A stretch of 51,707 nucleotides of DNA from Gammaproteobacteria bacterium (GTDB lineage Bacteria > Pseudomonadota > Gammaproteobacteria > JBOHHR01), in assembly GCA_050740975.1 (NCBI GenBank), contig JBOIEE010000011.1, forward strand, positions 1-51,707, in the 5' to 3' direction. The notes under the pieces are model-generated. The model was not told the DNA's origin and did not search any database. It was given only the letters and a program-made list of their open reading frames with translations. This document shows, piece by piece, positions 7,358 to 38,015 of the stretch (the stretch's first letter is position 1; every line of letters starts with the position of its first letter). The position numbers and the translations under genes were made by a program.

Positions 7358-8434
7358 TTGGATCTGGTACACTCGCTAAGGCCTGCCCACGGCACTGGAA
7401 CTGTGATGGGTGCCTATAGTTCTAGCACCCTGGTTTCTGAGAGGAAAGCGCGTCATTACAATCTCGCGCTCGTCATCTGGCTGTCGGTCTTTCTTCTGCT
7501 TTGGACCGCCGTTTTAATAACTCTTGACCGCACAGAACGCTTGCCTGCACCACCGATCACCGCCACTACCTGCATAGACGAAAAGTTCAAATTTCTGCAT
7601 GAAAGCGAACTATCCGACGTGAAAGTCGCGGCGATCGGGTCTTCCGTAACACTGCTGAGCGTCAACCTCGCGCTTTTGGAACAAACATACGGTGAACGAG
7701 CTAAACCGATCAACTTAGCACCGTGCTACCTTCGAATGAATCAGATCGAATTTCTTTCTGATTTTTATCTCGACAATATGTCCCAGGTTCACACGGTGTT
7801 CAGCGTGTTCTCGATGCGCGATTTTACCGATTGTGCAACTAATCCAACTGAATTTTTTGATCGCGATGTGGCCCATCGCTACGTGTTCGATAAATACAAG
7901 AGCTGGCATCTGTATTTTGCCAACTTCCGTCCAAAGCATTTTTTCAATGCTGTCAGGGAACTACCGGAGAAGCGAATCACAGGGGGGTTTAACATGGATC
8001 GTTATGGCTCGGAGCCTGCGCATGGCGCCCCCGATCCGCGCCAAGATGTAATCGTAGACCAAACCTGCTTCACAGCATTACAGCGCATGAGCGAGGATCT
8101 GGCGCGACGAAAAATCGATTTCGTTGCTGTGCTACTCCCACCTATGCCGATGTGGTTAAATCGATACGATCCAAATGGCGCGCGCGACAGAGCGTACCGC
8201 TCCGCTGTCGCCGCTCATGTCGACCCAGAGCACACCCTACTAATCGACACCGCCAAAGGGCTACCCCTCGATGACGAGCACTTTACCGATCCGGCGCATT
8301 TGCGGTGGGATTCCGTGCCGCTTTTGATGCAATACGTCATCGAAAAGATGGAGCAGGCGGGCATCACACTCGCAAGCATCACAGAAAAGACGGGGCAGGC
8401 TAGCAAGCAACGTAAAACAAACATATCGGGCTAA
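7358..8434 (+). CDS. Membrane-anchored hypothetical protein, possibly an SGNH/GDSL-like acyl-transfer partner of the downstream MBOAT
   Basis: One N-terminal TM helix (LALVIWLSVFLLLWTAVLITL). There is a possible block-I VAAIGSSVT and a block-V-like DPAH near the C-terminus (DDEHFTDPAHLRWD). It ends 34 nt before the MBOAT gene. The start is uncertain: TTG at 7358 or ATG at 7406. Confidence 0.4.
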   Translation: MDLVHSLRPAHGTGTVMGAYSSSTLVSERKARHYNLALVIWLSVFLLLWTAVLITLDRTERLPAPPITATTCIDEKFKFLHESELSDVKVAAIGSSVTLLSVNLALLEQTYGERAKPINLAPCYLRMNQIEFLSDFYLDNMSQVHTVFSVFSMRDFTDCATNPTEFFDRDVAHRYVFDKYKSWHLYFANFRPKHFFNAVRELPEKRITGGFNMDRYGSEPAHGAPDPRQDVIVDQTCFTALQRMSEDLARRKIDFVAVLLPPMPMWLNRYDPNGARDRAYRSAVAAHVDPEHTLLIDTAKGLPLDDEHFTDPAHLRWDSVPLLMQYVIEKMEQAGITLASITEKTGQASKQRKTNISG

Positions 8435-8468
8435 CGCACGATCTCCCTGTACCCGATAGGATCCGAGA

Positions 8469-9956
8469 ATGCTCTTCAATTCCTACGAGTTCATTTTCGG
8501 TTTCTTGCCCATAACCTTGGCCCTCTATTATCTGCTCGGCCTGCTCGGCTTACCGCGTCCCGCCTTGATCTGGCTCACTGGCGCGTCGTTTTTCTTCTAT
8601 GGCTGGTGGAACCCATCCTATCTGCTGCTGCTCTTCGCCAGTATCCTTTTTAATTTCGGTGTCGGCGTTCTCTTGACTCGTGCCGCCCGCCAGGGTTCGC
8701 CGCTGCGCCATACGCTGCTGGCGTTTGGCGTCACGGGCAACCTAGCACTGCTCGGTTATTACAAGTACGCAGCCTTTTTTGTCTCCAATCTGGGTGCGAT
8801 CTCGGGGTTTGAGTTCCAGATCCAGGCCGTGGTGCTACCCTTAGGGATCTCATTCTACACCTTCACCCAAGTCGCCTATCTGGTTGATGCGACCAGGGGA
8901 GAAGCCGAAGACTACAACCTGATCTCTTACTGCCTGTTTGTCACGTTTTTTCCGCACCTCATCGCGGGCCCGATCATTCACCACCGGCAGGTTATGCCCC
9001 AGTTCGCCCGGTCTGGCACCTTCCGGTTTAGCCACGTGAATTTCGCGACCGGCATCACGTTCTTCGCCGTTGGACTTTTCAAGAAAGTCGTTTGCGCGGA
9101 CACCATGGGCACGTTTGCCTCCCCTGTCTTCGCCGCAGCGGCGGACGGGGTGGAGTTGAGCGCGGTTCGGGCGTGGACCGGCGTGTTGGCGTTTACGCTG
9201 CAGATCTATTTTGACTTTTCTGGGTATTCGGACATGGCCGTGGGATTGGCGCGCCTGTTCGGTATCACCCTACCGTATAATTTTAATTCGCCTTACAAGG
9301 CGGTTAACATCATCGACTTCTGGCGCCGATGGCACATGAGTCTGTCGCGGTTCTTGCGCGATTATCTCTACATCCCGCTCGGAGGCAATCGGCGGGGAGA
9401 GACGCGGCGCTACATGAACCTATTCCTCACCATGCTCCTCGGTGGACTTTGGCACGGCGCCGGGTGGACCCTTGTGGCGTGGGGTGCTCTGCATGGATTT
9501 TATCTGCTGGTTAATCACGCCTGGCACAGCCTGCGCGCCCGACTCGGCTTTCCGGTGGTGAGCCAAGGGACTCTCTGGGGCCGCAGTCTTGCGCGGCTGC
9601 TCACCCTGCTCTCTGTCATCCTAGGCTGGGTGTTGTTCCGCGCAGAAAGCATGGATACAGCCTTCAACCTGCTGTCCTCCATGGGTGGAAACCACGGGAT
9701 ATGGGTTCCAAGGGATTTGGAACCTGCGATGATCGAGCCACTGGGGGTCGGCGTCTTGGAGCAAGGCTCGCTCATTATTTGCTTATTGGCGCTCGCGGGA
9801 TTCGGTCCCAACTCGCAAGAGTCGATCGATGGAGCGCAGCCGAGCCGCTTGATCTGGCGTTTCAGCGCGCTGCAGGCTTCCATCGTCGCAACCCTCCTGC
9901 TGTTCTCGATCAGCCGGTTGTCGCAGGTCAGCGAATTCCTATACTTTGACTTCTAG
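8469..9956 (+). CDS. MBOAT family membrane-bound O-acyltransferase (AlgI/PatA/DltB-like)
   Basis: 495 aa, polytopic. It starts MLFNSYEFIFGFLPI and carries the MBOAT signature FWRRWHMSLSRFLRDYLYIPLGGNRRG with the conserved His. Confidence 0.9.
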   Translation: MLFNSYEFIFGFLPITLALYYLLGLLGLPRPALIWLTGASFFFYGWWNPSYLLLLFASILFNFGVGVLLTRAARQGSPLRHTLLAFGVTGNLALLGYYKYAAFFVSNLGAISGFEFQIQAVVLPLGISFYTFTQVAYLVDATRGEAEDYNLISYCLFVTFFPHLIAGPIIHHRQVMPQFARSGTFRFSHVNFATGITFFAVGLFKKVVCADTMGTFASPVFAAAADGVELSAVRAWTGVLAFTLQIYFDFSGYSDMAVGLARLFGITLPYNFNSPYKAVNIIDFWRRWHMSLSRFLRDYLYIPLGGNRRGETRRYMNLFLTMLLGGLWHGAGWTLVAWGALHGFYLLVNHAWHSLRARLGFPVVSQGTLWGRSLARLLTLLSVILGWVLFRAESMDTAFNLLSSMGGNHGIWVPRDLEPAMIEPLGVGVLEQGSLIICLLALAGFGPNSQESIDGAQPSRLIWRFSALQASIVATLLLFSISRLSQVSEFLYFDF

Positions 9957-9973
9957 AACTTGGCGCTAGCAAC

Positions 9974-10081
9974 ATAGGAAATACCGTGATCATGGGGGTG
10001 AATTCAGTCTTGTCCGGAACGATCCCAGACAACGTCGTCATTCAGGGCAACCCGGCGAAGGCGATCTTCAAGCGGCGCTGA
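9974..10081 (+). pseudogene. C-terminal remnant (~35 codons) of a left-handed beta-helix (hexapeptide-repeat) acetyltransferase
   Basis: My translation gives IGNTVIMGVNSVLSGTIPDNVVIQGNPAKAIFKRR*. This matches the usual C-terminal end of hexapeptide acetyltransferases (..IG.n..IGagsvV.kdIPdn.vavGnPAk.Ir.R). The frame is closed by TGA at 9947-9949, so no N-terminal body exists. Confidence 0.5.
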
Positions 10082-10145
10082 GGCCAGCACGGCAGCGTGG
10101 TTTGGGCGGCGGTGACGCATCGCTTCGGCCAACGCGGCGTCTTCG

Positions 10146-10955
10146 CTAAAGCGCCGCGGATTCGAGCATGTGGTGGGTCGCTTGGCACTTTCTGTACAGC
10201 TCCAACGCTTCCGGCACTAGGGTAAAGGATTGGATCACCTTTTCAAATTCACCTCCCGAAGCGAGGATCGGAGGCAACTCCTGGGCAAGCTCCGTGACAT
10301 GCGCCCCGTGTTTTCGCGCGACCACAAGATAATAAAGATAATGCAGTGCTCGAATGACCAGGTTGGGATCGCTATAGGCGTCAAGAATGGGCACTAAAAA
10401 GGCAAGTTGCAGCGAGCGGGAACGCGCATCCAATATCAGCTCAGCGCCCTTCACCGTACAGATCATAGGAAGCGCTTTGGCCGTCTCCGCGTCATCGAAC
10501 CCGATGGCTGGCCACGGAATCTCAGGTTGGGGGATCCCGAACTTCTCCGCGAAAGCCCTTTGATAACACCAGGCGAGACTCGAGGCAACCGCGTCGTCCA
10601 CCGGTGCCGTGGCTGGATTTGAAAACTCACGCAACATCGGAACAAAGGCGCGCCGCAGATCCACCCGTGCGTGATCATTGCTCTGATCTACCAGTATGCG
10701 GTAGCCCAGCCCAGCGATAAGCACCACACGAGAAAGGGCTTCAAAATTCGGCAATTGGTTGAGCAACAGTCGTATCGCCCGCGCGTCGATGGCGGTTTGA
10801 GTCCATGCCAGAAACGCGATCAGGTTTCCCGTAATATACGTGTTTCTCGATCGCTTCCATGAGTTAAGGACGGCCTGCATCCGCTGTTCGCTTATTTCCT
10901 GCCCCTGAAACAACTCGCCCGCCATGCGGTAGATATGAGAGTTGAATGCGGTCAC
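10146..10955 (-). CDS. C-terminal (putative sensor) region of the NACHT protein, separated from it only by an in-frame TAG
   Basis: Same reading frame as 11016..12512 (12512-10146+1 = 2367 = 789 codons). The 60 nt between them translate as FLLAQYFALCLEWGHVEDFG with no further stop. The region looks helical and I could not recognise TPR, WD40 or LRR repeats. Confidence 0.6.
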   Translation of the reverse strand: MTAFNSHIYRMAGELFQGQEISEQRMQAVLNSWKRSRNTYITGNLIAFLAWTQTAIDARAIRLLLNQLPNFEALSRVVLIAGLGYRILVDQSNDHARVDLRRAFVPMLREFSNPATAPVDDAVASSLAWCYQRAFAEKFGIPQPEIPWPAIGFDDAETAKALPMICTVKGAELILDARSRSLQLAFLVPILDAYSDPNLVIRALHYLYYLVVARKHGAHVTELAQELPPILASGGEFEKVIQSFTLVPEALELYRKCQATHHMLESAAL

Positions 10956-11015
10956 ACCGAAATCCTCGACATGGCCCCATTCAAGGCATAAAGCAAAGTA
11001 TTGCGCGAGCAGAAA

Positions 11016-12512
11016 CTACTGCCAATGGCGGTGGGAAAAGCGGACTTTTTCGGGCCCGGTAGCAAGGAACACAGTTCGTTGCAGCAGCGCGTTGCAGGTT
11101 TCCGGGTCGCCGGCCAAACGAAATCCCATGATGATGTCTTGCACTTCAGACCCGGCTCCGTGTTGCGAAAAAAACGCTTCCCACCGCTTACTGGCATCAC
11201 AAGCTTCAGTCTGCAGCACTTCCGTGCTGATCTCGCCGCGCGATCTTTGAAAGAAGAGCCATGCGATCAGTGTCAGAGCATAGAGCAGGTGATCGATTTC
11301 AACGACTCGTGCTGCTTTCGCGCGTACCCCGACCAGATTGCTGCGCCGAATGATGGTGCGTATCGTTTGGCCCAGGACCGAGCAGCGGGTCAAAAATTCG
11401 CGAGCGAATGCGACCTCGCGTTCCGGTTCATAGTTGGACAGGATAAGCGGTGTAAGTATGAGATTGACCAGTTCCCGATCCTCGATATCGGGTAGCCAGG
11501 CCTTGCATGCAGGGAAAAATCGTTCAGCCTGGGCCTCTGATAGACGCAGCACCTCAAAGATATCCTTGCGATCATCCGCTAAGCGTTGCAATCCCGGGAA
11601 GCCGGCGCGTATCGCCACGACAAAGGAAAGACGCGAATTGCTGCGATAGCGGTTTGCCGCCTGGCGCAGCATCGCAGTTACGGTGGACAAACCAATGCTC
11701 GGGTGATTGACCAAAAAATCATCCACACCGTCGAGAAACACGGTAACTGGGGTTCTTTGCAATCTGCTCTCCAGCCAATCCATGTCGTTTTCGGGCAGTG
11801 GGTAGAGGCTGTGCGCCCAGTTAACCCACCAACGCCAAAGGATGCTCCACAGGTCGAGGTCTTCGGTGAGGTCCGTTAAGGTCACTTGTTGCAGAGGGAT
11901 AAACAAAGGCAGGGGACGATTGTTCAGCGCCGAGGAGAGATACTCCCGTCCTAAGCGCCAAGCGATCATGCGCACGACTAGCGACTTGCCCACACCAGCC
12001 GCCCCGGTGATAACCATCTGCCGCGGCCGTTCTCCGCCAGTGTCTATTCGGCCCAGGACCGCATCGCGGATCTCGGTCTGGGTCCCCGAAAAAGCGGCCT
12101 CCAGACTCGGCGGTGGAGGATTATTTTGTGCCGACTCGCCTTGACCGATCAAAGACTTTATCGACGTCACCTTATTAACCTCGGCGATACGCTCCAAGCT
12201 TATGTCGGTCACGGTGAGCCCGATGTCTGATCCATAGCGGCTCACAAACTGCGCTACGATGGCGACGACGGGATCGCTGGCTTGCTTCGGGACCTTGACC
12301 GATTTGTGCGTGCCACGGAAGCAGAGATCGCGCTGGTTGGGATCCGTCACAATGGGCACCGACAAATCGGATTTTGCGTAGATGTCGTGCACCATGGGGT
12401 ATGGAACATCCCGCGCGTTCGACGCTTTCTGGTGCTCTAGAAATTCAGTTTCCAGTTCCAACAACCAGGGATTCTGCCACCGCAGGGCGACGAGAATGTC
12501 GTTCCATCCCAA
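11016..12512 (-). CDS. NACHT/STAND-type P-loop NTPase (NLR-like), truncated by a TAG at 11016-11018
   Basis: Walker A is MVITGAAGVGKSLV (coded at about 11981-12012). Walker B is VTVFLDGVDDF, followed by SFVVAIRAG. The ORF ends at ...VRFSHRHWQ*, inside the NACHT winged-helix F-x-H-x-x-x-Q-E-[FY]-L-x-A motif. The start is unclear: TTG at 12512 or ATG at 12395. Confidence 0.75.
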   Translation of the reverse strand: MGWNDILVALRWQNPWLLELETEFLEHQKASNARDVPYPMVHDIYAKSDLSVPIVTDPNQRDLCFRGTHKSVKVPKQASDPVVAIVAQFVSRYGSDIGLTVTDISLERIAEVNKVTSIKSLIGQGESAQNNPPPPSLEAAFSGTQTEIRDAVLGRIDTGGERPRQMVITGAAGVGKSLVVRMIAWRLGREYLSSALNNRPLPLFIPLQQVTLTDLTEDLDLWSILWRWWVNWAHSLYPLPENDMDWLESRLQRTPVTVFLDGVDDFLVNHPSIGLSTVTAMLRQAANRYRSNSRLSFVVAIRAGFPGLQRLADDRKDIFEVLRLSEAQAERFFPACKAWLPDIEDRELVNLILTPLILSNYEPEREVAFAREFLTRCSVLGQTIRTIIRRSNLVGVRAKAARVVEIDHLLYALTLIAWLFFQRSRGEISTEVLQTEACDASKRWEAFFSQHGAGSEVQDIIMGFRLAGDPETCNALLQRTVFLATGPEKVRFSHRHWQ

Positions 12513-13078
12513 TCCTTTTGCCCTTGGGTCACGAACCGAGCAAGCTTCAGAAAGGGCGACATCAGCGGGAAAATTGAATGATACGTAATCTTGGCAAAGG
12601 CAGTGATAAAGGGTGACCCTCCGCTATGCGGCACGGCAATGTTGATTACGTGGCGGGTTCGTAACCACAGCGAGGACGACGAGGAATCAAAGCCTCCGTT
12701 ATCGAGCTGAGTCTTAAGCTCTTGATACGCCTGTTTCAGCATCTGCTTGACCACGAGACCCCCGGTGCTGTGGGTTACAAACAAAAGCTGTCGATGAACA
12801 CCAAACTCGGTTTGTAACCAGATCCGCAGATCCTCTGCGGCCAACGGGATGCTGGAACGCTGCCAGATCTGGGATGGATAAGCGAAAGACACCGTATCTA
12901 CGTCGCTACCACAACTCTCCAGGATCCATTCCGGGACCTTGCCCCAGGTTCGACCGCAATCGCCAAATATCCCGTGCACAAAAACCAGCAGGCATCCGGA
13001 CGCCATCGGTTGGGCGCCCCGGTTCGCTTTGTGTACGATCCCGTATTTACTCGTGCTGGTCCAAAATGCTTGACTCAT
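12437..13078 (-). CDS. Alpha/beta-hydrolase, lipase/esterase-like (DUF676/PGAP1/SesB-like); probably the N-terminal effector domain of the NACHT protein
   Basis: LLVFVHGIFGDCGRTWGK is followed by the nucleophile elbow FVTHSTGGLVVKQ (a GxSxG variant, about 12760-12783). The likely ATG is at 13078 (MSQAFWTS). The longer track ORF to 13225 would overlap the fadD 3' end. The 3' end overlaps the NACHT ORF by 76 nt in the -1 frame. Confidence 0.65.
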   Translation of the reverse strand: MSQAFWTSTSKYGIVHKANRGAQPMASGCLLVFVHGIFGDCGRTWGKVPEWILESCGSDVDTVSFAYPSQIWQRSSIPLAAEDLRIWLQTEFGVHRQLLFVTHSTGGLVVKQMLKQAYQELKTQLDNGGFDSSSSSLWLRTRHVINIAVPHSGGSPFITAFAKITYHSIFPLMSPFLKLARFVTQGQKDWDGTTFSSPCGGRIPGCWNWKLNF

Positions 13079-13113
13079 TTGGCTTTCGTTCTTTGGAAGT
13101 GAGGTCGGACCGA

Positions 13114-14726
13114 TCACCGCCCGCGCAACTCCCGCCGCAGGATCTTGCCCACGCCCGATTTTGGTAAGCTTTCGAGAAACTCCACGTATTTCGGCACCTT
13201 GTAGGCCGTCAGTCGCTCTCGGCAATGGCCGCGGACCCCCTCAATGCTCAGTTGTGCACCGGTATTGGCCACAATAAACACCTTTACCGCTTCCCCTGAT
13301 TGCTCATCGGGCACTCCGACACAAGCGCTCTCTAACACTCCTTCGCATTGGGCCAGAGCCTCTTCCACTTCGTTGGGATAGACGTTAAAACCGGATACCA
13401 GGATCAGGTCTTTTTTACGATCAACGAGGTAGAAATATCCCTTTTCATCCATCCGCGCAACGTCTCCCGTTTTGAGAAACCGTCCAAGGTCATTACGTCG
13501 CAGGTCGCTTCCTCTCGGCCCCAATAGGCTTGCATCACCTGGGGTCCTTTGGCACACAACTCCCCGCAACTTCCAAGCGGAACCTCATTACCTTCTTCAT
13601 CCCGCAAAACGATCTCGGTCGACGGGACCGGCAGACCGATGCTCCCGCTGAAGGTCTTTGTGGCGTAGGGATTAATGGCTAACAAGGGCGATGTTTCCGA
13701 AAGCCCGTAGCCTTGCAATAAGGGGCAACCGGTAAGCTCAAACCACTTATCCGCCACGGCGTGTTGAATTGCCGCTCCGCCACCCATGGCAATTTTGAGC
13801 GCAGAGAAATCGACATCGCGGAAACCCTCGCCATTCAAGAGACGGTTGAAAAGCGTATTGACGCGGTGATGACGGAAAACCTCCATTTGCGGAGCTCCCT
13901 CACCAATGCAGACATATCACGGGGATCGGTAATCAACACATTCTGGGCCCCGAGATATTAAAAATGCCAAACAGTTAATCGTCAAGGCGAAAATATGGTA
14001 AAGGGGCAATGCGGTAACGACGATCTCTTTGCCTGTTTCGATTATCGGGCCCAGCGCGCTCGAGAACTGGAGTATGATCAGATTGCGGTGGGTTAGCATA
14101 GCGCCTTTAGAGATCCCGGTTGTTCCACCGGTATATTGCAAGAATGCGATGTCTTCGCCGGCTATCGGGACTTGCTCGAGACCAAGCTGCTTGCCGATGG
14201 CTAATGCGGCCGCGAATTGATCCCTTATACCCTCGCCCGGCTCCCCAGCCTGCGTGGACGGTAGATCGCCGGAGCGGGCGATAATAATAGTTTCGATCGG
14301 TGTATGGTGCCGGAGCTGCTGCAACCTGGGGAGGGAATCGCCGTGGATCACGATGGCCTTAGCGCCCGCGTCGTTTAGCTGATGTTCCAGCTCATCCTGC
14401 GTGTACAGCGGATTGATATTGGTGACGCGCGCACCGGTGCGCAGAGCACCCAGAAGGGCAATGGGGAACTGCGCCAGATTGGGTAGCATGATGGCGACGC
14501 AATCCTGCTTTTTTATACCCCGCGCCCTTTGCAAATAGGCGCCAAAATCGCGTGCCAGCACATCAAGCTCGGAAAAGGATAGAGTCGTGTCGCCGTTACT
14601 GAACGCTGGACGAGCGCCAAAGTTGCGAACGCTCTGCTCAAACAAGGCGATCAGCGAAGCGTAGGCGTCGGGATCGATCTCGTGGGGTACACCGGCCGGA
14701 TAGTGCTTAAGCCAGATCTTTTCCAT
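13114..14726 (-). pseudogene. fadD: Long-chain-fatty-acid--CoA ligase (FadD-like), split over three frames by two 1-nt frameshifts
   Basis: Track ORFs 13917..14726, 13404..13886 and 13114..13569 are consecutive FadD pieces. The first has MEKIWLKHYPAGVP and LQYTGGTTGISKGAMLTHRN. The second has NTLFNRLLN and GYGLSETSP. The third has [39 protein letters not shown] and [27 protein letters not shown]. Frame breaks lie at about 13955-13965 (A5 run) and 13477-13480 (A3 run). This may be an assembly artefact rather than a true pseudogene. Confidence 0.8.
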
Positions 14727-15152: not shown

Positions 15153-16211
15153 ATGTTTATCAACGGGTTGGGTACGGCGAATCCACCGCAACGTTACACG
15201 AAAATAGAATGTTGGGAAGCCCTGATGCGTTCTGAGTGGTTTTCAAGACTGGATCGCCGGGCGCGTTCGCTCGCGGAAACGGTGTTGCTGGGCAACAATG
15301 GCATAGAATCCCGCTGGCTTGCGCTCAACTCCTTGAGCGAAGCTTTTCGGATCGATCCCGATACGATGCATCGACGCTTTGAGTCTCATGCCCCCGCCTT
15401 GGCCGCGCAGGCCGCCGAGCGCGCATTGTCGGACGCACGCATCCTGCCCACCGAGGTAGACGCTGTGATCGTCAGCACCTGCACTGGGTATCTCTGCCCG
15501 GGTCTTAGCAGCTATGTAACCGAATGCTTGGGGTTGAGGCCTGATGTCCAGGCTTTCGACCTAGTGGGCCAAGGTTGTGTCGCGGCCTTGCCTAACTGGC
15601 GCATGGCCGACGCGCTGCTGGCGGCGGGATACTGCCGCTGTGTACTGTCCGTTTGCGTCGAGCTGAGCAGTGCCGCCATGTACCTCGATAATGACCCCGG
15701 GGTCTTGATTAGCGCGTGTTTGTTTGGCGATGGGGCGGGAGCCGTTCTACTCGGTGATAAGCCCAGCCCGCACCAACGTCGCATTGAGTGGAAGATCTGC
15801 TCCTCCGTACTAAACCCGGCCGAGCGCGATGCGCTGCGCTTTGAGCAACGGGGCGGCCTGTTACGCAATATCCTCACCCGACCGGTACCGCAACTCGCCG
15901 CAGAGCATGCCCAGCGGATCTTGGATCGAGTATTGGGCAATGAAGGGTTAAGCTACAGCGACATCAAGGCCTGGATCTGGCACGCGGGGGGACGTGATGT
16001 GCTGGTAGCGCTTCAGACCAGGCTTGGGCTCAGCGCCGCTGAGCTTCGTTACAGTGCAGCCATGTTGCGCGAATACGGCAATCTCAGCAGCGCCTTTGTC
16101 TATTTCGTATTACAGGCGGCGCTCGCCGACGATGCACCGGGTGGATGGTGGTGGGTGTCCTCGTTTGGCGCCGGATTTAGCTGCTATGGCGCCATGCTCG
16201 AGGTGGCCTAA
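15153..16211 (+). CDS. Type III polyketide synthase (chalcone synthase-like)
   Basis: 352 aa. The start MFINGLGTANPPQRYT resembles other type III PKS N-termini. The active-site Cys context is VSTCTGYLCPG. The His motif is WIWHAGGRDVL (HPGG-like) and the Asn motif is EYGNLSSAFVYFVL (GNMSS-like). The C-terminal part is SSFGAGFSCYG. Confidence 0.8.
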   Translation: MFINGLGTANPPQRYTKIECWEALMRSEWFSRLDRRARSLAETVLLGNNGIESRWLALNSLSEAFRIDPDTMHRRFESHAPALAAQAAERALSDARILPTEVDAVIVSTCTGYLCPGLSSYVTECLGLRPDVQAFDLVGQGCVAALPNWRMADALLAAGYCRCVLSVCVELSSAAMYLDNDPGVLISACLFGDGAGAVLLGDKPSPHQRRIEWKICSSVLNPAERDALRFEQRGGLLRNILTRPVPQLAAEHAQRILDRVLGNEGLSYSDIKAWIWHAGGRDVLVALQTRLGLSAAELRYSAAMLREYGNLSSAFVYFVLQAALADDAPGGWWWVSSFGAGFSCYGAMLEVA

Positions 16212-16236
16212 CACGCCTCTTCTCTTGGCACGACCC

Positions 16237-16941
16237 ATGACCATGCAACGCCGCGTACTGCCCGAATTGCTGGATGAGCTTCCGGCGAATGATCCACGGG
16301 CGATTCGGGCGAGAGGCGATTTGCAACGCGTCAACCGGGTAATGGGTGCTTTATCGCTGATGTTGCGCGCCGTGGATCACAGCATAATACCGCAGCCGCC
16401 ACGGAGCATCGTTGAGCTGGGGTCGGGCGATGGGACATTCCTATTGCGCTTGGCGCGAAAGCGAGCCACCTGCTGGCCGGGTGTGAGGATCACGCTTTTA
16501 GATCGGCAGCTCCTGGTACGCCCTGAGACGATACAGGGTTTTGTGCGCCTGGGTTGGCAAGTCGAGGTGGTCACCTCGGATGTGTTTGATTGGCTAGCAC
16601 AACCGCTAAACGAGCGCATCGACCTGTTGCTGGCTAATCTGTTCATCCACCATTTTTCCCAAGAGCGTCTGTCCTGTTTGCTGCAAGGCATAGCGGCACG
16701 TACCCACTCGTTTCTGGCCTGCGAACCACGCCGCACCACATTAGCGCTCATCGGTAGCTACCTGATTGGCCTTATCGGCTGCAACGCGGTGACCCGTCAT
16801 GACGCGATCCTGAGCGTACATGCGGGTTTTCGGGCAAAGGAGCTGTCTGCGCTGTGGCCCCAGGGGGAGGATTGGTTTTTTCACGAATGGCCAGCGGGGC
16901 TATTTAGCCATTGTTTCTTAGCAATTAGAGCAACCCGTTGA
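16237..16941 (+). CDS. SAM-dependent methyltransferase
   Basis: Motif I is IVELGSGDGTFLL. The ATG at 16237 (MTMQRRVLPELLDE) lies just after the PKS stop. The track ORF start at 16024 would overlap the PKS gene by 188 nt. Confidence 0.65.
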   Translation: MTMQRRVLPELLDELPANDPRAIRARGDLQRVNRVMGALSLMLRAVDHSIIPQPPRSIVELGSGDGTFLLRLARKRATCWPGVRITLLDRQLLVRPETIQGFVRLGWQVEVVTSDVFDWLAQPLNERIDLLLANLFIHHFSQERLSCLLQGIAARTHSFLACEPRRTTLALIGSYLIGLIGCNAVTRHDAILSVHAGFRAKELSALWPQGEDWFFHEWPAGLFSHCFLAIRATR

Positions 16942-16945
16942 GCTG

Positions 16946-18196
16946 ATGGAGAGTGTGTACGAGGCGATCATCATAGGTGGCGGGCCAGCGGGCGCGAGCA
17001 CCGCCATCTTATTAGCACAAGCGGGATGGTCGGTCGCGCTGGTGGAAAAGCAACGCTTTCCCCGACGTAAGGTATGCGGCGAATGCATTGCGGCGCCCAA
17101 TCTTCCGCTGCTTGACGCGCTGGGAGTAGGCGCAGCGTTCGCGGACCTTGCCGGGCCGGAACTGCGCCGTATCGGCGTATTTGCCGGTGGCAGGATACTT
17201 TCCGCCGAGCTACCGCGCTTTGGGGATGGCCGGTACCCATGGGGCAGGGCCCTAGGCCGAGAATATTTAGATGATCTCCTGTTGCAACGCGCGGCAGAAG
17301 CAGGCGCCTGTGTTTGGCAGCCCTGGGGCGCACGAGAAATCGGGTGGGATTGCGGGAGCTATCATTGTCGGGTCCAATCCTTGGGCTCCGGCGTGCACCG
17401 AGCGCTTGTAGCACCTGTTCTGGTCGCGGCAGACGGCTCGTGGGAGCCGTGCCTATGGGCACGCAGTCGGGTTCCCCGGCGGCCGGGTGATCTGTTCGCA
17501 TTCAAGGCAAACTTCTTAGACTGTGACCTGGACCCCGGGCTGCTACCGGTGTTGGCCTTCCCTGGAGGCTACGGCGGGATGGTGGTGGCGGATCATGGTC
17601 GGGTCACGATGGCCTGCTGCATACGCCGAGATGCTTTGCAGAGATGCCGAGATCGCCACCCGCGAGCGAAGGCGGGCGAGTGCATTCAGGAATACCTACA
17701 AGAGAGTTGCCTCGGCGTCCGTCGGGCATTATCTGGCGCAAAACGCGAAGGGGTTTGGTTGAGCGCAGGCCCTGTTCGGCCCGGGATCCGCGCAACCTGG
17801 GGCAAAGACGGTGTATACATGGCGGGCAATGCCGCCGGTGAGGCCCATCCGATCATAGGCGAGGGGATCAGCATGGCGATCCAAGCAGCCAGCTTGTTGT
17901 CCGAGCAACTCGTCTCACATCGCGCGGGGCTGTTATCCGGGAGGGCGATCGTCGGCGCGGGGCAGGAATACGCTTTTCGTTGGCGCAACAGTTTCGCAGC
18001 GCGCATTCGCGCATCGGCCTTACTGGCGAATCTCGCTATGCGGCCAGGCGCGGCGGCGCCCCTGCTGCCCCTCCTTCAGCGTTGGCCAACGGTCCTCACC
18101 CGAACGGCCCGGATGAGCGGCAAGGTGCGACCTCTGGTAACTCAAGCAACGAGGGCGCGCACGCTAGAATACACGCACACAGAAGGGCTCAGATGA
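16946..18196 (+). CDS. FAD-dependent oxidoreductase / flavoprotein monooxygenase (geranylgeranyl-reductase-like fold)
   Basis: The N-terminal dinucleotide fold is YEAIIIGGGPAGASTAILLAQAGWSVALVEKQ. The GD-type motif is MAGNAAGEAHPIIGEGISMA. It starts 4 nt after the methyltransferase stop. Confidence 0.75.
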   Translation: MESVYEAIIIGGGPAGASTAILLAQAGWSVALVEKQRFPRRKVCGECIAAPNLPLLDALGVGAAFADLAGPELRRIGVFAGGRILSAELPRFGDGRYPWGRALGREYLDDLLLQRAAEAGACVWQPWGAREIGWDCGSYHCRVQSLGSGVHRALVAPVLVAADGSWEPCLWARSRVPRRPGDLFAFKANFLDCDLDPGLLPVLAFPGGYGGMVVADHGRVTMACCIRRDALQRCRDRHPRAKAGECIQEYLQESCLGVRRALSGAKREGVWLSAGPVRPGIRATWGKDGVYMAGNAAGEAHPIIGEGISMAIQAASLLSEQLVSHRAGLLSGRAIVGAGQEYAFRWRNSFAARIRASALLANLAMRPGAAAPLLPLLQRWPTVLTRTARMSGKVRPLVTQATRARTLEYTHTEGLR

Positions 18197-18459
18197 CTAC
18201 GCTCGAAAGGTTACAAGGGGTCATGCTCAAGAATTTCGGTCTGAAACCGGAAGCGCTTGCGCCCGAGGCGCGGCTTGAGGATCTCGACATTGATTCCCTA
18301 GGTGTGATCGATCTGATGTTCTGTGTGGAGGACGAGTTCAAGATCACCGTGTCACGGGAGCAGGTCGAACTTGACACCATACAAGACGTCGTCACCTACA
18401 TCGATCATCTCATCGCCGAGCAGAAGACAACGGTAGCCCAAGAGGAGACAGCGCCTTGA
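18193..18459 (+). CDS. Acyl carrier protein
   Basis: 88 aa from the ATG at 18193 (an ATGA overlap with the preceding stop). The phosphopantetheine site is LEDLDIDSLGVIDLM (DSL). The rest of track ORF 17980.. is an out-of-frame overlap with the oxidoreductase. Confidence 0.8.
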   Translation: MTTLERLQGVMLKNFGLKPEALAPEARLEDLDIDSLGVIDLMFCVEDEFKITVSREQVELDTIQDVVTYIDHLIAEQKTTVAQEETAP

Positions 18460-19685
18460 GGCGAGTGGTAGTCACGGGCCTCGGTGTGATCTCTCCGTTG
18501 GGCAATGAGCCCTTCATTTTTTTTGATAACCTCATGGCAGGCAAATCCGGGATCAAGCGCATCGACGCTGACTTTTGCCAGCGTCTGTGCACCCCGCTCG
18601 CCGCCTCGGTTATTTTCGATGCGAGCGCTTATTTCCCGGCGGCCAGATTACGGGCGCTCGATCGCGTCAGTCAGTTCGCACTGGCCGCCGCTGGCCAGGC
18701 CCTGGAGGACGCTGGCCCCGGGTGGAGCGATGCGGACAGGGTGCGTACCGGCGTGTTTCTGGGCACTGGTATGGGCGGGGCCAATACCACGGACGAAGGC
18801 TACCACACTATTTACGCAAAAGGCTCCGATCGGGTCAAACCCTATACCGTGCTAATGGCGATGACAAACGCACCCGCATCCTGGATCGGTATCGAGTATG
18901 GGCTGAGGGGGCCTAATGTCACGGTCTCCACCGCCTGCTCGTCTTCGGCCGTAGCAATCGGAGAGGCCTGGCGCCGGGTAAAAAGCGGTGATGCAGACAT
19001 CATGCTTGCGGGCGGTGCAGAAGCGCCACTGAACTTTGGCACGCTCAAGGCGTGGCAGGCATTGAAAACCTTGGCGCTTGAAGACGCCGTAGACCCGTCG
19101 GCCTCGTGTAAACCCTTTGCAAAGGATCGGACGGGCCTGGTGTTAGGTGAAGGCGCCGCCATTTTGGTGCTGGAAGAATATCGCCGCGCGGCACGCAGGG
19201 CCGCGCGGATTTACGGTGAAATTGTGGGCTACGGGTTGAGCACGGATACAGCCCATATTACCCGGCCCACAGTGGAGGGGCAAGCGCGGGCGATGCAGCT
19301 GGCAATAGAGTCCTCTGAACTGGACGCTAATCAGATAGACTACATCAATGCCCATGGTACCGGTACGCTGCAGAACGATGGAGTAGAAACTTCGGCTATT
19401 AAACATGTATTCGGTGAGCAGGCCTACCGCATCCCGGTCAGTTCGACCAAGTCCATGCACGGCCACCTGTTGGGCGCCGCGGGTGCAATAGAATTCGTTG
19501 TCACCTTGTTGGCGATGCAAGCGAGCGCAATACCACCGACGATCAACCTGCATACACCCGATCCCGATTGTGACCTGGATTATGTGGCAGAGGGGGGCAG
19601 GCTAGAAGTCGAAACCAAGGTCGTTATGTCAAACTCATTCGCCTTCGGAGGAACGAATGCGGTCCTGATCGCGCGAAAACTGTAG
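18456..19685 (+). CDS. Beta-ketoacyl-ACP synthase, KAS I/II (FabF/FabB-like) family
   Basis: It starts (TTG)RRVVVTGLGVISPLGN. The active-site Cys is in VSTACSSSAVAIGEA. The two His motifs are INAHGTGT and KSMHGHLLGAAG. It ends NSFAFGGTNAVLI. There is a TTGA overlap with the ACP stop. Confidence 0.85.
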   Translation: MRRVVVTGLGVISPLGNEPFIFFDNLMAGKSGIKRIDADFCQRLCTPLAASVIFDASAYFPAARLRALDRVSQFALAAAGQALEDAGPGWSDADRVRTGVFLGTGMGGANTTDEGYHTIYAKGSDRVKPYTVLMAMTNAPASWIGIEYGLRGPNVTVSTACSSSAVAIGEAWRRVKSGDADIMLAGGAEAPLNFGTLKAWQALKTLALEDAVDPSASCKPFAKDRTGLVLGEGAAILVLEEYRRAARRAARIYGEIVGYGLSTDTAHITRPTVEGQARAMQLAIESSELDANQIDYINAHGTGTLQNDGVETSAIKHVFGEQAYRIPVSSTKSMHGHLLGAAGAIEFVVTLLAMQASAIPPTINLHTPDPDCDLDYVAEGGRLEVETKVVMSNSFAFGGTNAVLIARKL

Positions 19686-23672: not shown

Positions 23673-25046
23673 TTAGTTTGTGTCCGCTCTCAGCACCTCT
23701 TCCTGGCCCTGGGTGTTCACAGTATACAGCAACACAGGACGCCGCCATACCTTCGATAGGTAGCCCAATACCTTGCGCGCTGAGTGCGTATCGAGACCTC
23801 TTCCGTCAAACACGTGATCTTGTCGCAGCACTAAAGTGCCGTCGGTTTGCAGCTCGGAAATATAAACCCTGGGGGTTCCGAAATTGTATTTTGGCCTCAA
23901 AATCGCCTCATGAAGGGCATCTATGTCCCATTCTTCGACGGTGATTTCTCCACTACGCTTCGCTGTGTAGGTGAATAGCCCTAATTCTCTGGCCGTGTCC
24001 ACATCCAAGTAATTGCGCACAAAACCGGTGTCTTCCTCCTCTCGCATGATCTTGCGGGCATGATCGAGGCCCTGCTCTTCTATGATTTTATCCCACAAGC
24101 TAAAGCCGATGTGATACGGATTGAGTGCCAGCGCGACTTCGTGCTCACCCGCGAAAGGACGCACGACATCCGAATGGATCTTTATGGCGTCTAGGTATTC
24201 TTCATCCGGCAGGAAACTAGCCTCTCGCAGCAACCTGGCGTGCCAATAGGAAGCCCACCCCTCGTTCATGATGTTGCAACAAAATACGGGATGAAAGTAG
24301 AAAGACTCCTCTCGCACCGCCAGAAAGATGTCTCTTTCCCAGTCGTCCAGCTCGGGTGCATAGTGGGCGACAAACCACAACAGGTCATATTCCGGATGCG
24401 GAGGCATGGGAGCGCGTCGATACTTTGGTTTATGTGAGGAGGGCGGGCTTTCTCCGGGCAGGTTTGTGAACCGTTCCTTGAATTCGTCCTTGGAGAAAAG
24501 AGCATCGGATTTCAGATATTTATCGAAAAGTGGCCGGCGCAAGCTTTTGCTGTAATCGATATGCTGCTCGAGGGCTAAAGCCGCATCCAGAACTTCTTCC
24601 ACACGCTTGACCCCGTGCTCATTGATGGACTGCTCGATCTGATGCGCATGTGCGGCGGCTTGCTCAACGATTCGGTGCCCCACTTGATCCTGGGCCGTTT
24701 TAAACAGCAGATTGTTCTTGGCAAAGTCTGCGTGGCCGAGCACGTGCGCTACTACCAGGGTATTTTCCTGTAGCGAGTTGGTGTTGGACATATACGCCCG
24801 AACTGGGCTACCCGGAAACACCACCTCAAATATCCTCGAATGGCCCATTCTGTGCTGGACCAGTTCGTAGATATATCGCACCCCAAAGGACCAATGCGCC
24901 ATACGCACCGGAAGTCCGTAGACCGCCACCTCCATCATGAACGACGGAGGGACAATCTCAAATTCTACTGGATAGAAATCTAGCCCCAGGGACCGAGCCA
25001 TGCCCTCCAGTCGCCCGAGGTATCCTCTGAGAGTATCCTCCTCCAT
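23673..25046 (-). CDS. ycgB: SpoVR/YcgB family protein
   Basis: [46 protein letters not shown] and [15 protein letters not shown] are typical of SpoVR. The ATG at 25046 lies 5 nt after the yeaH stop. The track start at 25124 overlaps yeaH. Confidence 0.85.
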
Positions 25047-25050
25047 TAAC

Positions 25051-26223
25051 TCAGGACAGCTCGGTGCTTGCCTGATGCTGGAATAGACCTTTAATCGCTG
25101 GCCAGATATCTTCGTAACCGCCAAGCGGATAGCTGCCTACACCCAAACCCCGTCTTACCAAGCTATCGAACAGCCGTCCCGTTTCGGAATGCGATACTTG
25201 CTTTTGGAGGGAACCGGTCTCCACGTATCCGATAAAATTCATCAGCGCGGACAATTCATTTAAAGCGGATGCCGCCGGCCCCCGGTCCGCAATAAAATTG
25301 TCACCGTCGGACGCATAGAACAAATAGCCATTGTACCGATAAGAATCAAAGCGGGATTGAAAAAGGTCTAGCACAACCTTGAATGCACTCGAAGCCTGAG
25401 TACCTCCTTCGGCAGTCACGTAAAAGAATTGCTCCTCCGAAAATTCCCAGGCTGTGCTAGTATGCGCGATGAATACCGTATCCAGCTGGATATACTGCCG
25501 CCGCAAGCCCTGCAGTGCCCAAAAGAAAAACGTCTTGGCGAGCTTGCGGTCTTCTTCGCCCATGCTCGATGAAACATCCATCGCAAAAAAAACCACAGCG
25601 CAAGTCGCCGGACGGCGGCGGCGCGAAAGCTGGCGAAAGCGCAAATCGTCATTCGCAAAGCCCGGTCCATCGGGTTGAACAGAGCGTCGTTTGATCGCCT
25701 CCTTCATGGTGCGTCTCCTATCCAAACGAGAGCGTACCCCGCGCTTGTCCCATCCTTCCCGCACGAATTCATCGTGCGCCAATACGGTGCCGGGCTTGGG
25801 TTTCAGCCTCGGTAACTGCAGTTCCTCCCAAAGCCAGTCGATGATATCGTTGATTTTAAGCTCGATAAAAAACTGAAATCCGCCCTCGTCTGTACCTGCA
25901 CCGCGGCTTCTGCCCTCCCCTAAATCGGGCACCAACACATCCCCGGGTTTAACTTGTCCTTTGGCCCCTTGTCCCGCCCGAACCTGCTCCTCTGAGCGGC
26001 GTAGGCGAAAGCGGCTATGTTCCAAGAAGCGTACAGGCACCCGTATGGCCCGATCGCTAGGACGCGTGATCACGTCCGGGCCGGCGATGATTTCCGGCAG
26101 ATGCGCTTTTACCGCCTCACGGATTTTTTCGTTATGCCGCAACCAATCGCGCGGACCCCGGGAGAAAAGCTCATACCATCCCTTATTCGCAGTACCGATA
26201 GAACGTTTAGGATCAAAACCCAT
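25051..26223 (-). CDS. yeaH: YeaH/YhbH (DUF444) family protein
   Basis: 390 aa between the prkA-like and spoVR-like genes. It has a vWA-like MDVSSSMG motif and the YASDGDN motif. Confidence 0.8.
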   Translation of the reverse strand: MGFDPKRSIGTANKGWYELFSRGPRDWLRHNEKIREAVKAHLPEIIAGPDVITRPSDRAIRVPVRFLEHSRFRLRRSEEQVRAGQGAKGQVKPGDVLVPDLGEGRSRGAGTDEGGFQFFIELKINDIIDWLWEELQLPRLKPKPGTVLAHDEFVREGWDKRGVRSRLDRRRTMKEAIKRRSVQPDGPGFANDDLRFRQLSRRRRPATCAVVFFAMDVSSSMGEEDRKLAKTFFFWALQGLRRQYIQLDTVFIAHTSTAWEFSEEQFFYVTAEGGTQASSAFKVVLDLFQSRFDSYRYNGYLFYASDGDNFIADRGPAASALNELSALMNFIGYVETGSLQKQVSHSETGRLFDSLVRRGLGVGSYPLGGYEDIWPAIKGLFQHQASTELS

Positions 26224-26262
26224 CGCTAACGACCAACCTGTGATTACATGCTCACCTGGTTT

Positions 26263-28218
26263 TCATTCTTGGGACAATAAGGTGGTCACGTAATTTAGTG
26301 CCTCGCGCGCACTATGAAAGTCATAACTGTACTCCTCCACTAGCCTTCTTTCGACCGCCGAGATCTTCTCCTTGGTTTCTTCATCAGGCCGAGCGGGAGA
26401 GGTCACCAGACGCAGTACATCGCGCCGCTCTTCAAACAAATATTGTTCGATAGCCTCATGCAGGCGTGCGTGATTATCGAGGGTGAACTTTTCTCCCATC
26501 TTGTAAGCAACCATTGCTTTCCTCACGACTTCTTGCCGAAAAGCCATCTTACCCGATTCGGATATGCTTATTTTGCTTTCTACGGCCCGCAGGAAACGCT
26601 CGTCAGGATCACGCGTCTCGCCGGTGATGGGATCTTCCACTTCGCGGTTGTCGAGGCTAGCCTCCACCTCATCGAGGTATTTCTCGAGCAGGGACTGGGC
26701 TTCCTTTTGAAAAGAAGCAAACAGCGCTTTGTGCACGTCCTCCTTAACCCAACGATTGTAAAAATCCTTGCGCACCATCACCAGGAAATCCATCCATTCG
26801 CGTTTGTGCTTCGCATCCATTCTGGCATCTGATTCGATGGCGTCTTTGAGCGCTAACAGGATCTCCATGCTGGTTAAACTTTGCAATTCGCTGCGCGTGA
26901 TGGCTTTGGAGACCGCATTGATCACAAAGCGCGGGCTGACCCCTGACATTCCTTCCTCAGGAGTTTCGGTACGAACCCGGTCCACTTCCGCATCACTGAA
27001 CCCTTCCACATCTTCCCCGGCGTATAAGCGCACTTTTTTGGGCAGCGTGAGTCCTTCTCGTTCCGATTTGTGCAGCCGTGTCAGGATCGCAAACACAGCC
27101 GCCACTGCAAGCGCGTGCGGATCTAGATGCACCTCGCGAAAATTCGGTGCCGCGGAAATCAACTTGGCGTAGATGCGGCGTTCATCGTGGTACGACAAGG
27201 TATAGGGCACCTTAACGATGACCATGCGATCCAACAGGGCTTCGTTTTCCTTCTCCTGCAAGAACTTGTGAAACTCAGCCAGATTGGTATGGGCAAGGAT
27301 TGCCTCATCGAGGTAGATCAAGGGAAACCGCGACACCTTGACGTTTTTTTCCTGAGTCAAGGTGAGCATAAGATAGAGAAACTCTCGCTTGACTTTGAGA
27401 ATTTCAATCATCTCCAGTAGGCCGCGGCTGGCGGCGTACACAGCGCCCGACCAGGACCAAGCGCGCGGATGACCCTCATCTCCGTATTCGCTCACCTTCG
27501 ATAGGTCGACAGAACCGACAAGGTCTGCGATGTCGGCGGTGGTGGGGTCATGGGGCGCGTACGTACCGATCCCACTGCGCCCAGCCTCCGAAATAAACAC
27601 CCGGCGCACCGGGAATTGCATGAAATCCCCGCTGAATTCCTCTTCCAAACGAACTCGGCTGAAAGGTGTTAGCTCGCCGCTGATTTCCACCCCATAGGTC
27701 TCCCGAAAATTCCCCCGCAGCGTGTGCGGTACCAGCAACAGGGGGCTTTCGTTAGTCGGCGAGCCTTGCAAAGCGTATAGGGCTCCCTCGTCGGTACGGC
27801 TATATTCTTCCAAGCCCCGCTTGAGCAGAATAACCATGGTGGACTTGCCGCCAGAGGGAGGACCCAATAGGAGCAATAAGCGTCGCCCTACCTCCGAACC
27901 CGCGCTAGCGGCTTTAAAATAATCGGCAACCCGCTCAAGGGCGTCGTCAAGGCCAAAAAGCTCATCGGCAAACAAGCAATATTGCTTTGCTTCCACGCCT
28001 TCTGCCCTCGTTCTGCGCTCATTCCAGCGCAACATGTCCCAAATATACTGGTGGCTGTTACGCGTCAGCACCTCGGGATTGAGAGGCACGACCTCCTCAA
28101 GAAACTGGGCGAACGTACCTTCCCAAAACTTCGCTTTATGCTCCTTTGCGTAGTGCGACAACGACCGCAGGAAGCGAGCGCGGGTGGTGCTATCTCCATT
28201 GTTGCCGTTATTGCCCAT
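26263..28218 (-). CDS. yeaG: PrkA/YeaG family serine protein kinase (AAA+-like N-domain)
   Basis: 651 aa. The P-loop is LLLLGPPSGGKST and the PrkA-type body follows. GGAGA lies upstream of the ATG. It is the first gene of the conserved yeaG-yeaH-ycgB triad. Confidence 0.9.
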   Translation of the reverse strand: MGNNGNNGDSTTRARFLRSLSHYAKEHKAKFWEGTFAQFLEEVVPLNPEVLTRNSHQYIWDMLRWNERRTRAEGVEAKQYCLFADELFGLDDALERVADYFKAASAGSEVGRRLLLLLGPPSGGKSTMVILLKRGLEEYSRTDEGALYALQGSPTNESPLLLVPHTLRGNFRETYGVEISGELTPFSRVRLEEEFSGDFMQFPVRRVFISEAGRSGIGTYAPHDPTTADIADLVGSVDLSKVSEYGDEGHPRAWSWSGAVYAASRGLLEMIEILKVKREFLYLMLTLTQEKNVKVSRFPLIYLDEAILAHTNLAEFHKFLQEKENEALLDRMVIVKVPYTLSYHDERRIYAKLISAAPNFREVHLDPHALAVAAVFAILTRLHKSEREGLTLPKKVRLYAGEDVEGFSDAEVDRVRTETPEEGMSGVSPRFVINAVSKAITRSELQSLTSMEILLALKDAIESDARMDAKHKREWMDFLVMVRKDFYNRWVKEDVHKALFASFQKEAQSLLEKYLDEVEASLDNREVEDPITGETRDPDERFLRAVESKISISESGKMAFRQEVVRKAMVAYKMGEKFTLDNHARLHEAIEQYLFEERRDVLRLVTSPARPDEETKEKISAVERRLVEEYSYDFHSAREALNYVTTLLSQE

Positions 28219-37837: not shown

Positions 37838-37920
37838 TCCGCCCCCGCTTAACTGTGCGCAACGGATGAACGCTTCGGGGCCTCCAGAGAGGATACTTTC
37901 TGATATGGACATTACAAGGG

Positions 37921-37980
37921 CTGACCCTATCGATGTGACAAGATCTGACCCTATCGAGGTTGTGGCCCTATCGAGGTGTG
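37921..37980 (+). repeat. Three direct copies of CCCTATCGA(G/T)GT.. immediately upstream of the vapB promoter (candidate operator)
   Basis: ccctatcga occurs at 37925-37933, 37949-37957 and 37966-37974. The extended matches are ctgaccctatcgatgtg, ctgaccctatcgaggttgtg and ggccctatcgaggtgtg. Confidence 0.7.
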
Positions 37981-38008: not shown

Positions 38009-38015
38009 GATATTC

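Follow-up and report, generated by a model that had tools for sequence, protein, structure and literature searches.

Introduction

Among the described systems closest to the gene analysed here, the bacterial antiphage bNACHT proteins carry the NACHT Walker B signature D[GAS]hDE quoted by Kibby et al., and the C-termini of bNACHT01-type proteins are fast-evolving (bioRxiv 10.1101/2022.07.19.500537). SesB-like lipase heads make up ~20% of the annotated N-termini of fungal NOD-like receptors (NLRs; PMC4986451), and bacterial all-in-one proteins that join an alpha/beta-hydrolase to a nucleotide-binding oligomerisation domain (NOD) were noted computationally earlier (bioRxiv 10.1101/2020.01.06.895854). 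Here we analyse a complete 51,707-bp contig, in the following called the window, from a public metagenome-assembled genome (MAG) of a Gammaproteobacterium (locus tags ACREV4_). At 10146..13078 on its minus strand lies a decayed NLR-like gene, whose product would have joined a predicted alpha/beta-hydrolase to a NACHT module and a helical C-terminal domain. An initial annotation, made from the letters alone, knew of no characterised bacterial system with this combination. Indeed, we found no catalogued match, and given the earlier computational report the combination is uncharacterised, though not unheard of.

Results and Discussion

The whole pseudogene, an ancestral open reading frame (ORF) of 977 codons plus stop, exists today as three ORFs on the minus strand. 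The first (12437..13225) has its ATG at 13078, 35 nt past the stop of a fadD-like gene at 13114, and contains LLVFVHGIFGDCGRTW and FVTHSTGG. The second (11016..12512) carries the motifs ITGAAGVGKS, VTVFLDGVDDF and FVVAIRAG, while the third (10146..10955) is helical and its frame is open from 11015, right behind the in-frame TAG at 11018..11016. The addition of one base to the 2933 nt of the locus gives 2934 nt, equal to 977 codons and a stop. The initial annotation had reassembled the three ORFs on this basis into one ~977-aa protein, interrupted by a frame step and an in-frame TAG, and both the positions and the motifs check out. The repaired 977-aa protein has 85 homologues in the databases, most of them single intact ORFs of 960-1005 aa; the closest are two partial proteins of 92% identity and P0002, a 977-aa protein of 82% identity. 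From this data, which lie far beyond chance, we conclude that the three ORFs are the remnants of one gene for a tripartite protein, which was broken twice. The locus is best read as a single decayed gene, which the public record splits into hypothetical proteins, the 269-aa ORF having its own entry (MGH8656992.1). A promoter and terminator scan of 9900-15200 gave counts not above those of shuffled controls.

To place the lesions, we aligned the window DNA with the locus L001 and with the two loci of 92% identity, L007 and L008. The frameshift is found at 12508..12510 (minus strand), in codons Trp190-Gly191 within the lid of the hydrolase. Here the window has GGG in place of GGGG; the relatives read AAG GAT TGG GGA TGG, so that one G is missing, and all relatives examined have a G4-5 run at this site. 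The premature TAG at 11016..11018 (minus strand) replaces Glu688 (GAG or GAA in relatives) within the winged-helix motif, at a position where all 53 aligned relatives have Glu or Asp. Directly upstream of the NLR-like gene, the fadD-like acyl-CoA ligase gene (13114..14726, minus strand) is a pseudogene as well: against the intact 540-aa orthologue of L008 it has one-base indels at ~13959 (+1), ~13864 (-1) and ~13482 (-1), in agreement with the initial description of fadD as disrupted. Two other assemblies bear on this damage. The Logan assembly L085 (SRR27067775) is 100% identical over 6652-12411, TAG included. The separately deposited assembly L084 (GCA_975376085.1), which is 99.78% identical with 24 single-nucleotide polymorphisms (SNPs) over 11.5 kb, has the frameshift and the TAG of the NLR-like gene, all three fadD indels and a fourth fadD indel at 13548. 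With the TAG present in both assemblies and all five lesions in L084, the breaks are not assembler artefacts. The inactivation must be recent, since the ratio of non-synonymous to synonymous substitution rates (dN/dS) of the window copy against its relatives (0.135-0.145) is the same as between intact copies (0.134-0.153), and every catalytic and NTPase motif is preserved. The NLR-like locus is a genuine, recent pseudogene, the system is non-functional in this genome, and fadD and the NLR-like gene have decayed together.

We weighed two other explanations for the broken frame. If the breaks were errors of sequencing or assembly, the organism would hold an intact, functional 977-aa gene. Such errors would suit an indel in a homopolymer run, the further single-base frame breaks on the contig (three in fadD, one at the 3' end of a FAD-oxidoreductase gene, one in an mtnA-like gene) and the lack of any relaxation in dN/dS. 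However, the TAG is a substitution and no indel, and the Logan assembly is identical across it; L084, 24 SNPs apart, shares all five lesions of the two genes and adds one in fadD; the contig's genes are mostly intact; and five of the seven lesions on the contig are clustered within ~3 kb, in two neighbouring genes. On L084 and L085 we reject an assembly artefact, for which the reads themselves leave room, and consider the error explanation very improbable. We find it hardly credible that the locus comprises three separate functional genes, or one gene expressed by programmed frameshifting and stop-codon read-through. It is true that the ORFs abut on one strand and that the 269-aa ORF has its own gene annotation. 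But the full-length homologues recovered are single uninterrupted ORFs, save a few possibly decayed copies. In the nearest relatives the two sites read GGGG and GAG; the first ORF alone would hold a nucleophile without the triad's Asp and His, and the second lacks the end of the winged-helix domain. Programmed recoding is rejected because a slippery heptamer is absent from the shift site and the relatives are intact, and read-through is further opposed by the fact that TAG is also the regular terminator of the NLR-like gene. Of the possibly decayed copies, L054 (8001..10914) shows three in-frame stops in its translation, and L041 (8001..10882) loses the frame after residue 365; each is either another pseudogene or an error in a long contig.

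The N-terminal part, residues 1-275 (12255..13078, minus strand), is predicted to be a PlaB-like alpha/beta-hydrolase on the basis of a conserved triad and of profile and Foldseek matches. The oxyanion motif is His35-Gly36, the nucleophile is Ser104 in THSTGG (12767-12769, minus strand), and the predicted catalytic Asp238 and His258 are encoded at 12366-12368 and 12306-12308 (both minus strand). Across 53 family sequences the HG motif, Ser104 and Asp238 never vary, and 52 of the 53 have His258. We modelled P0002, the orthologue of 82% identity, with AlphaFold2 (AF2; mean predicted local distance difference test, pLDDT, 87.1; predicted template modelling score, pTM, 0.86). Here Ser104, Asp238 and His258 come after the strands 97-103, 228-234 and 250-253, as in a canonical triad, and about residues 155-221 form an inserted helical lid. 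The frameshift lies inside this lid; Asp238 and His258 are downstream of it, and the hydrolase domain thus spans it. The first reading of the locus had confined the hydrolase to the first ORF. While the fold and the FVTHSTGG elbow stand, the domain runs past the frameshift and the Asp and His are supplied by the second ORF.

The best match in a profile search against the PDB was PlaB (6zth) with E 2.4e-5, limited to query residues 24-116. Foldseek matched the hydrolase to PE hydrolase, PlaB (E 1.2e-4), monoacylglycerol lipase and Legionella RavL, with a PlaB alignment of ~220 columns at TMt 0.28-0.31. A full-length single-sequence search gave no PlaB alignment over the triad region, only RavL at E 0.06. 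At E <= 1e-3, Pfam models recognise 17/40 family members as Abhydrolase_6, 6/40 as DUF7379 and 5/40 as DUF676; the best DUF676 E value in the family is 6.6e-6, and the window protein itself stays sub-threshold in its hydrolase matches (E 0.094 with DUF676). Judged by these distant matches, the putative hydrolase resembles lipases and phospholipases. It is followed by a linker of residues 276-335 (12075..12254, minus strand), which according to AF2 secondary structure and pLDDT consists of two helices and then a low-confidence loop. The linker is the least conserved segment, with a mean pairwise identity of 0.30-0.33.

Residues 336-700 (10980..12074, minus strand) make up a predicted NTPase of the NACHT type within the signal transduction ATPases with numerous domains (STAND), assigned from its motifs, from Pfam across the family and from Foldseek. 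Walker A is GAAGVGKS with Lys365 (11985-11987, minus strand) and Walker B is FLDGVDD with Asp450 (11730-11732, minus strand). In the 53 sequences G359, G364, K365 and D450 are invariant, residue 451 is G in 51, residue 453 is D in 50, and residue 454 is D or E in all; the family Walker B D-G-[LV]-D-[DE] thereby matches the NACHT signature. Additional features are an invariant sensor Arg491, the motif TPLIL and the winged-helix motif FSHRHWQ(E)FLLAQY (FxHRxWQEFLLA in the family). Against Pfam NACHT (PF05729) the repaired window protein scores 19.1 bits (E 1.2e-3), below the 26.7 cutoff, and against nSTAND_NTPase5 it scores 23.4 bits with a cutoff of 34. Across the family, NACHT is found at E <= 1e-3 in 29/40 members with a best E of 1.2e-8, and relatives having the same C-terminal domain reach 30-40 bits. 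Foldseek against the PDB is headed by NLRP3, NLRP14, NLRP9, SAMD9 and NOD2 (E 2.7e-7 to 1e-5), with Apaf-1 in 37th place. Motifs and modelled fold thus both identify the middle module as NACHT-type, as had been proposed for the second ORF; what needs correction is its end, because the winged-helix part continues for ~12 residues beyond the TAG.

The last 277 residues, 701-977 (10149..10979, minus strand), fold in the AF2 model into an all-helical domain of ~16 helices and one beta-hairpin (pLDDT 95.6, pTM 0.93). No repeats are detectable in it, in line with the initial description of the helical region. Pfam finds no family and no repeat family (ANK, WD40 or TPR) in this domain of the window protein or of the 40 members, and searches of the PDB (best E 0.19) and BFVD (best E 0.56) returned no relative. 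We dismissed a weak ARM/HEAT-like resemblance as noise (E > 0.19, TM <= 0.30). The domain is presumed to be the ligand sensor, and its fold appears to be new. It is also the most conserved part of the protein, with a mean identity of 0.51 vs 0.46 for the nucleotide-binding domain and the lowest omega (0.09, vs 0.13-0.16 elsewhere). An exhaustive search with this domain alone retrieved 158 representative proteins, and in every one of them the domain is C-terminal. We scanned nine of the 158: all have the NACHT module and they differ in their N-terminal parts. Five carry a Ser/Thr kinase head (1170-1400 aa; one of them from Myxococcales), one has an OmpR-type winged helix-turn-helix (wHTH) head (813 aa), and three have no recognisable N-terminal domain (~690-790 aa). 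As far as domain predictions go, the sensor-NACHT chassis bears interchangeable heads.

Our scan of the family, with one genome per species, gave ~55 full-length loci. The members come almost exclusively from Methylococcales (among them MAGs of the upland soil cluster gamma type, USC-gamma; Methylomarinum; Crenotrichaceae) and from Cycloclasticus/Piscirickettsiaceae, and relatives that are 25-30% identical were found in Verrucomicrobia, Planctomycetota and a cyanobacterium. Two or three paralogues are present in some MAGs; they are old (40-55% identical) and have diverged evenly across all domains. All-against-all clustering of the neighbours of 54 loci found no partner that is conserved family-wide. 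We therefore reject a conserved partner or operon; there is only clade-level synteny with pntAB, an outer-membrane protein (OMP), a glycosyltransferase (GT), CBS and pmoCAB, and with fadD in one subclade. In this subclade, to which the window belongs, fadD lies directly upstream in L001, L008, L013 and L041, with a gap of 4-5 nt in L013 and L041. Intact orthologues had been expected to reveal whether the family sits in defence islands. They were found, mostly as single ORFs, and their contexts vary. Defence or mobile genes lie near three loci, namely L001 (AbiJ_NTD3/Abi_C, a helicase and a DprA-like gene), L005 (type I-F Cas) and L006 (BrnT/PIN/IS66).

An OMP-like gene of 310-358 aa adjoins the NLR-like gene in 16 loci (L004 6910..7923; further examples are L049, L040 and L052). 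Its product looks like a beta-barrel of the outer membrane; it has a signal peptide and a coiled coil and ends in ...GGYLGFxF. In three such loci outside the USC-gamma synteny block the orientation varies and gaps of 400 nt are seen; we read this neighbour as ancestral synteny and not as an operon. In L081 a Phenol_MetA_deg OMP gene lies 26 nt upstream of the NLR-like gene. In the USC-gamma-like MAGs (L004, L011, L012, L014, L017, L018, L054, L061) the NLR-like gene is found 2-3 kb upstream of pmoCAB.

What might the intact protein do? We lean towards an immune or cell-suicide-type NLR-like protein that would attack phospholipids, and think this somewhat probable. At rest, the intact protein would be monomeric and closed, its C-terminal domain lying against the NACHT module. 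A cue bound by the C-terminal domain would allow nucleotide exchange and NACHT-driven oligomerisation, which would bring together and unlock the lidded N-terminal hydrolases. These would then deacylate membrane phospholipids, so that membrane failure would end in growth arrest or cell death of the abortive-infection or suicide type. The proposal draws support from two precedents: the activity of PlaB is controlled by its oligomeric state, which is a precedent for the oligomerisation step, and degradation of membrane phospholipids is an established abortive-infection output (CapV, PMC12480259). Furthermore, the swapped N-terminal outputs on a chassis of NACHT and C-terminal domain would mirror the effector shuffling of fungal and bacterial NLRs. 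Together with up to three old paralogues per genome, some defence or mobile contexts and a stand-alone gene, they may give the family the flavour of a conflict system. Its decay into a pseudogene here is in keeping with a gene that is accessory and costly.

Several observations weigh against the immune reading. Of the initial proposal of an NLR-like immunity gene, the tripartite NLR-like architecture holds; the gene is dead here, and immunity would be deduced from this architecture only, just as a phospholipid substrate would be deduced only from distant similarity to PlaB (E 2.4e-5 over ~90 residues). In the PADLOC-DB scan no defence model matched (best mad8 at E 8.6e-4 and AbiO at E 0.068), and the NCBIfam models HyoA and EruA cover only ~43 winged-helix residues with 17.6 bits against a cutoff of 1200; on these two scans a known defence system was rejected. 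A literature search on the origin of the names HyoA and EruA found nothing relevant. Neither did the viral contigs of IMG/VR contain any family member, for which reason carriage by phages or prophages was rejected too. No part of the protein is more conserved than the presumed sensor, the opposite of the bNACHT01-type C-termini. Most orthologue surroundings are of the housekeeping type, as in L004, L080, L081, L082 and L083, and so are those in the window. The initial annotation had regarded the latter as accessory, which is not supported; the contig is mostly intact core chromosome, with, among others, LptD, citrate synthase, PrpD, PrkA/YeaH/SpoVR, LigD, GpsA, SecB and iPGM. In 12-13 USC-gamma-like species the gene occupies one site, in the order pntAA-pntAB-pntB - OMP-like - NLR - GT4 - CBS - pmoCAB. 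Where PntB is ~80% identical in this clade, the NLR-like protein is ~60% identical, near the GT at ~61%, and the clade inherits the gene vertically at this fixed site. Finally, a recent survey classed 198/589 prokaryotic STAND clades as defence-associated (PMC13581612).

Much of this would suit a STAND-gated lipase or esterase that is not immune at all and serves endogenous signalling or membrane-lipid homeostasis, for example intracytoplasmic membrane turnover, in methane- and hydrocarbon-oxidising Gammaproteobacteria. What its C-terminal domain senses would be a conserved metabolite or protein of the cell, and the loss of the NLR-like gene here would go along with the loss of the linked fadD. 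Vertical inheritance beside pmoCAB, at a rate like that of the adjacent GT and OMP genes, speaks for such a role, as do the strongest purifying selection on the C-terminal domain, the narrow and ecologically coherent taxonomic range, the lack of any defence-catalogue match or viral copy, and the base rate, the majority of STAND clades not being defence-associated. Lipid-related neighbours point the same way: the acyl-CoA ligase is directly upstream in L013, L041, L001, L008 and the window, where it has co-decayed, and a lipid-type cluster of MBOAT, acyl carrier protein (ACP) and AMP-ligase genes lies near the copies in the window and L081. Also, fusion of the same chassis to a wHTH DNA-binding domain is reminiscent of transcription regulators. 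On the other hand, the fadD adjacency is confined to one subclade and no neighbour is shared family-wide. Conflict systems typically show several ancient paralogues per genome and exchangeable enzymatic heads, as here; some copies clearly sit among defence genes or mobile elements, and a cytoplasmic phospholipase under a NACHT switch is the classic layout of a suicide effector. Moreover, the gene is dispensable, being a pseudogene here and possibly in L054 and L041. On balance we regard a non-immune role as possible but rather unlikely. Unlikely too, and put forward tentatively, is a vertically inherited NACHT-gated phospholipase whose unusually conserved and structurally novel C-terminal domain monitors an endogenous component, as a 'guard'-type NLR or as a non-immune NLR of membrane-lipid turnover. 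Candidates for the monitored component would be particulate methane monooxygenase (pMMO) and the intracytoplasmic membrane, or the lipid-activation machinery of methane- and alkane-oxidising Gammaproteobacteria. Under endogenous monitoring, the joint decay of fadD and the NLR-like gene would reflect a functional pair. The conserved sensor and the fixed chromosomal position mark the family as a candidate bacterial NLR of guard type or without immune function.

Other genes of the window complete the picture of the locus. The MBOAT O-acyltransferase gene at 8469..9956, which the initial annotation had taken for an acetyltransferase remnant, is an intact gene of 495 aa. It is preceded by the gene of a 358-aa protein without Pfam match, the two spanning 7358..9956 (plus strand). 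In L081 a similar cluster at 8897..12005 has genes for a 336-aa protein, an ACP, an MBOAT and an AMP-ligase; an NLR-like paralogue of 42% identity is 4 kb away, and lipid or acyl-transfer genes may be a recurring neighbourhood. On the other side, a cluster at 15153..19685 (plus strand) encodes a type III polyketide synthase, an unknown protein, a FAD-dependent mono-oxygenase, an ACP and a ketosynthase, in synteny with L008. Two insertions were seen in this cluster, one of 1 nt at ~18144 towards the 3' end of the FAD-oxidoreductase gene and one of 16 nt at ~16226. Further away, the mtnA-like gene (Pfam IF-2B; 31888..32918, minus strand) is split into 32918..32283 and 32283..31888, the two halves covering profile positions 32-157 and 174-278; this frameshift suggests that the lineage, or the assembly, has several broken genes. 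A stress operon PrkA / DUF444 (YeaH) / SpoVR is located at 23673..28218 (minus strand). The region 35318..38707 (plus strand) holds a full LigD gene (phosphoesterase-ligase-primase) of non-homologous end joining and a PIN-toxin pair at 37866..38707, the sole toxin-antitoxin-like element of the window.

If our preferred reading of an immune or suicide-type protein is true, a lipase-type, membrane-attacking output, so far documented mainly in fungal NLRs, would join the bacterial NACHT repertoire, and with it a new sensor fold. Environmentally important methanotrophs, among them the USC-gamma oxidisers of atmospheric methane, would also yield an NLR that is tractable and encoded by a single gene.

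Comparison with Known Systems

The hydrolase is closest to PlaB of Legionella pneumophila (6zth/6zti), with which it shares the unusual THSTG(G), the Ser-Asp-His triad and an N-terminal domain of ~300 aa with a lid. The similarity is limited to ~90-220 residues, which are 16-19% identical. Where PlaB continues into a bilobed beta-sandwich at its C-terminus, this family has the NACHT module and the helical domain, and PlaB is a surface-associated virulence factor that tetramerises in an NAD(H)-dependent manner. Avs and the CapV protein of CBASS are alike in concept, in that sensor-gated oligomerisation or a signal turns on a cell-killing effector. However, no Avs hidden Markov model of PADLOC matched, and the NTPase here is NACHT-like and not of the Avs1-4 type; CapV has a patatin fold and is activated by cyclic nucleotides, unlike an alpha/beta-hydrolase that is fused to STAND.

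The fungal and bryophyte SesB-like NLRs (Dyrka et al. 2014, PMC4986451) resemble the family in having an alpha/beta-hydrolase N-terminal to a NACHT NOD. They also present alternative heads, PKinase included, on similar NODs, as is the case here, and some family members show a weak DUF676 match. The differences are a compact, non-repeat helical domain in place of the C-terminal ANK/WD40/TPR repeats, the bacterial host, and a hydrolase that is nearer to PlaB and not clearly of the DUF676/SERAC1 type. The bNACHT antiphage proteins (Kibby et al., bioRxiv 10.1101/2022.07.19.500537) lack a lipase or alpha/beta-hydrolase head in the published effector list. Their C-terminal domain diversifies rapidly, whereas it is conserved in this family, which is in addition mostly vertical, set in housekeeping neighbourhoods and without PADLOC match. 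In overall design the two are nevertheless alike: both are single polypeptides with an N-terminal enzyme, a NACHT and a C-terminal domain, both have the Walker B signature and the winged-helix extension, both are encoded by a stand-alone gene, and the protein kinase and wHTH heads listed for bNACHT proteins both recur on the related chassis described here.

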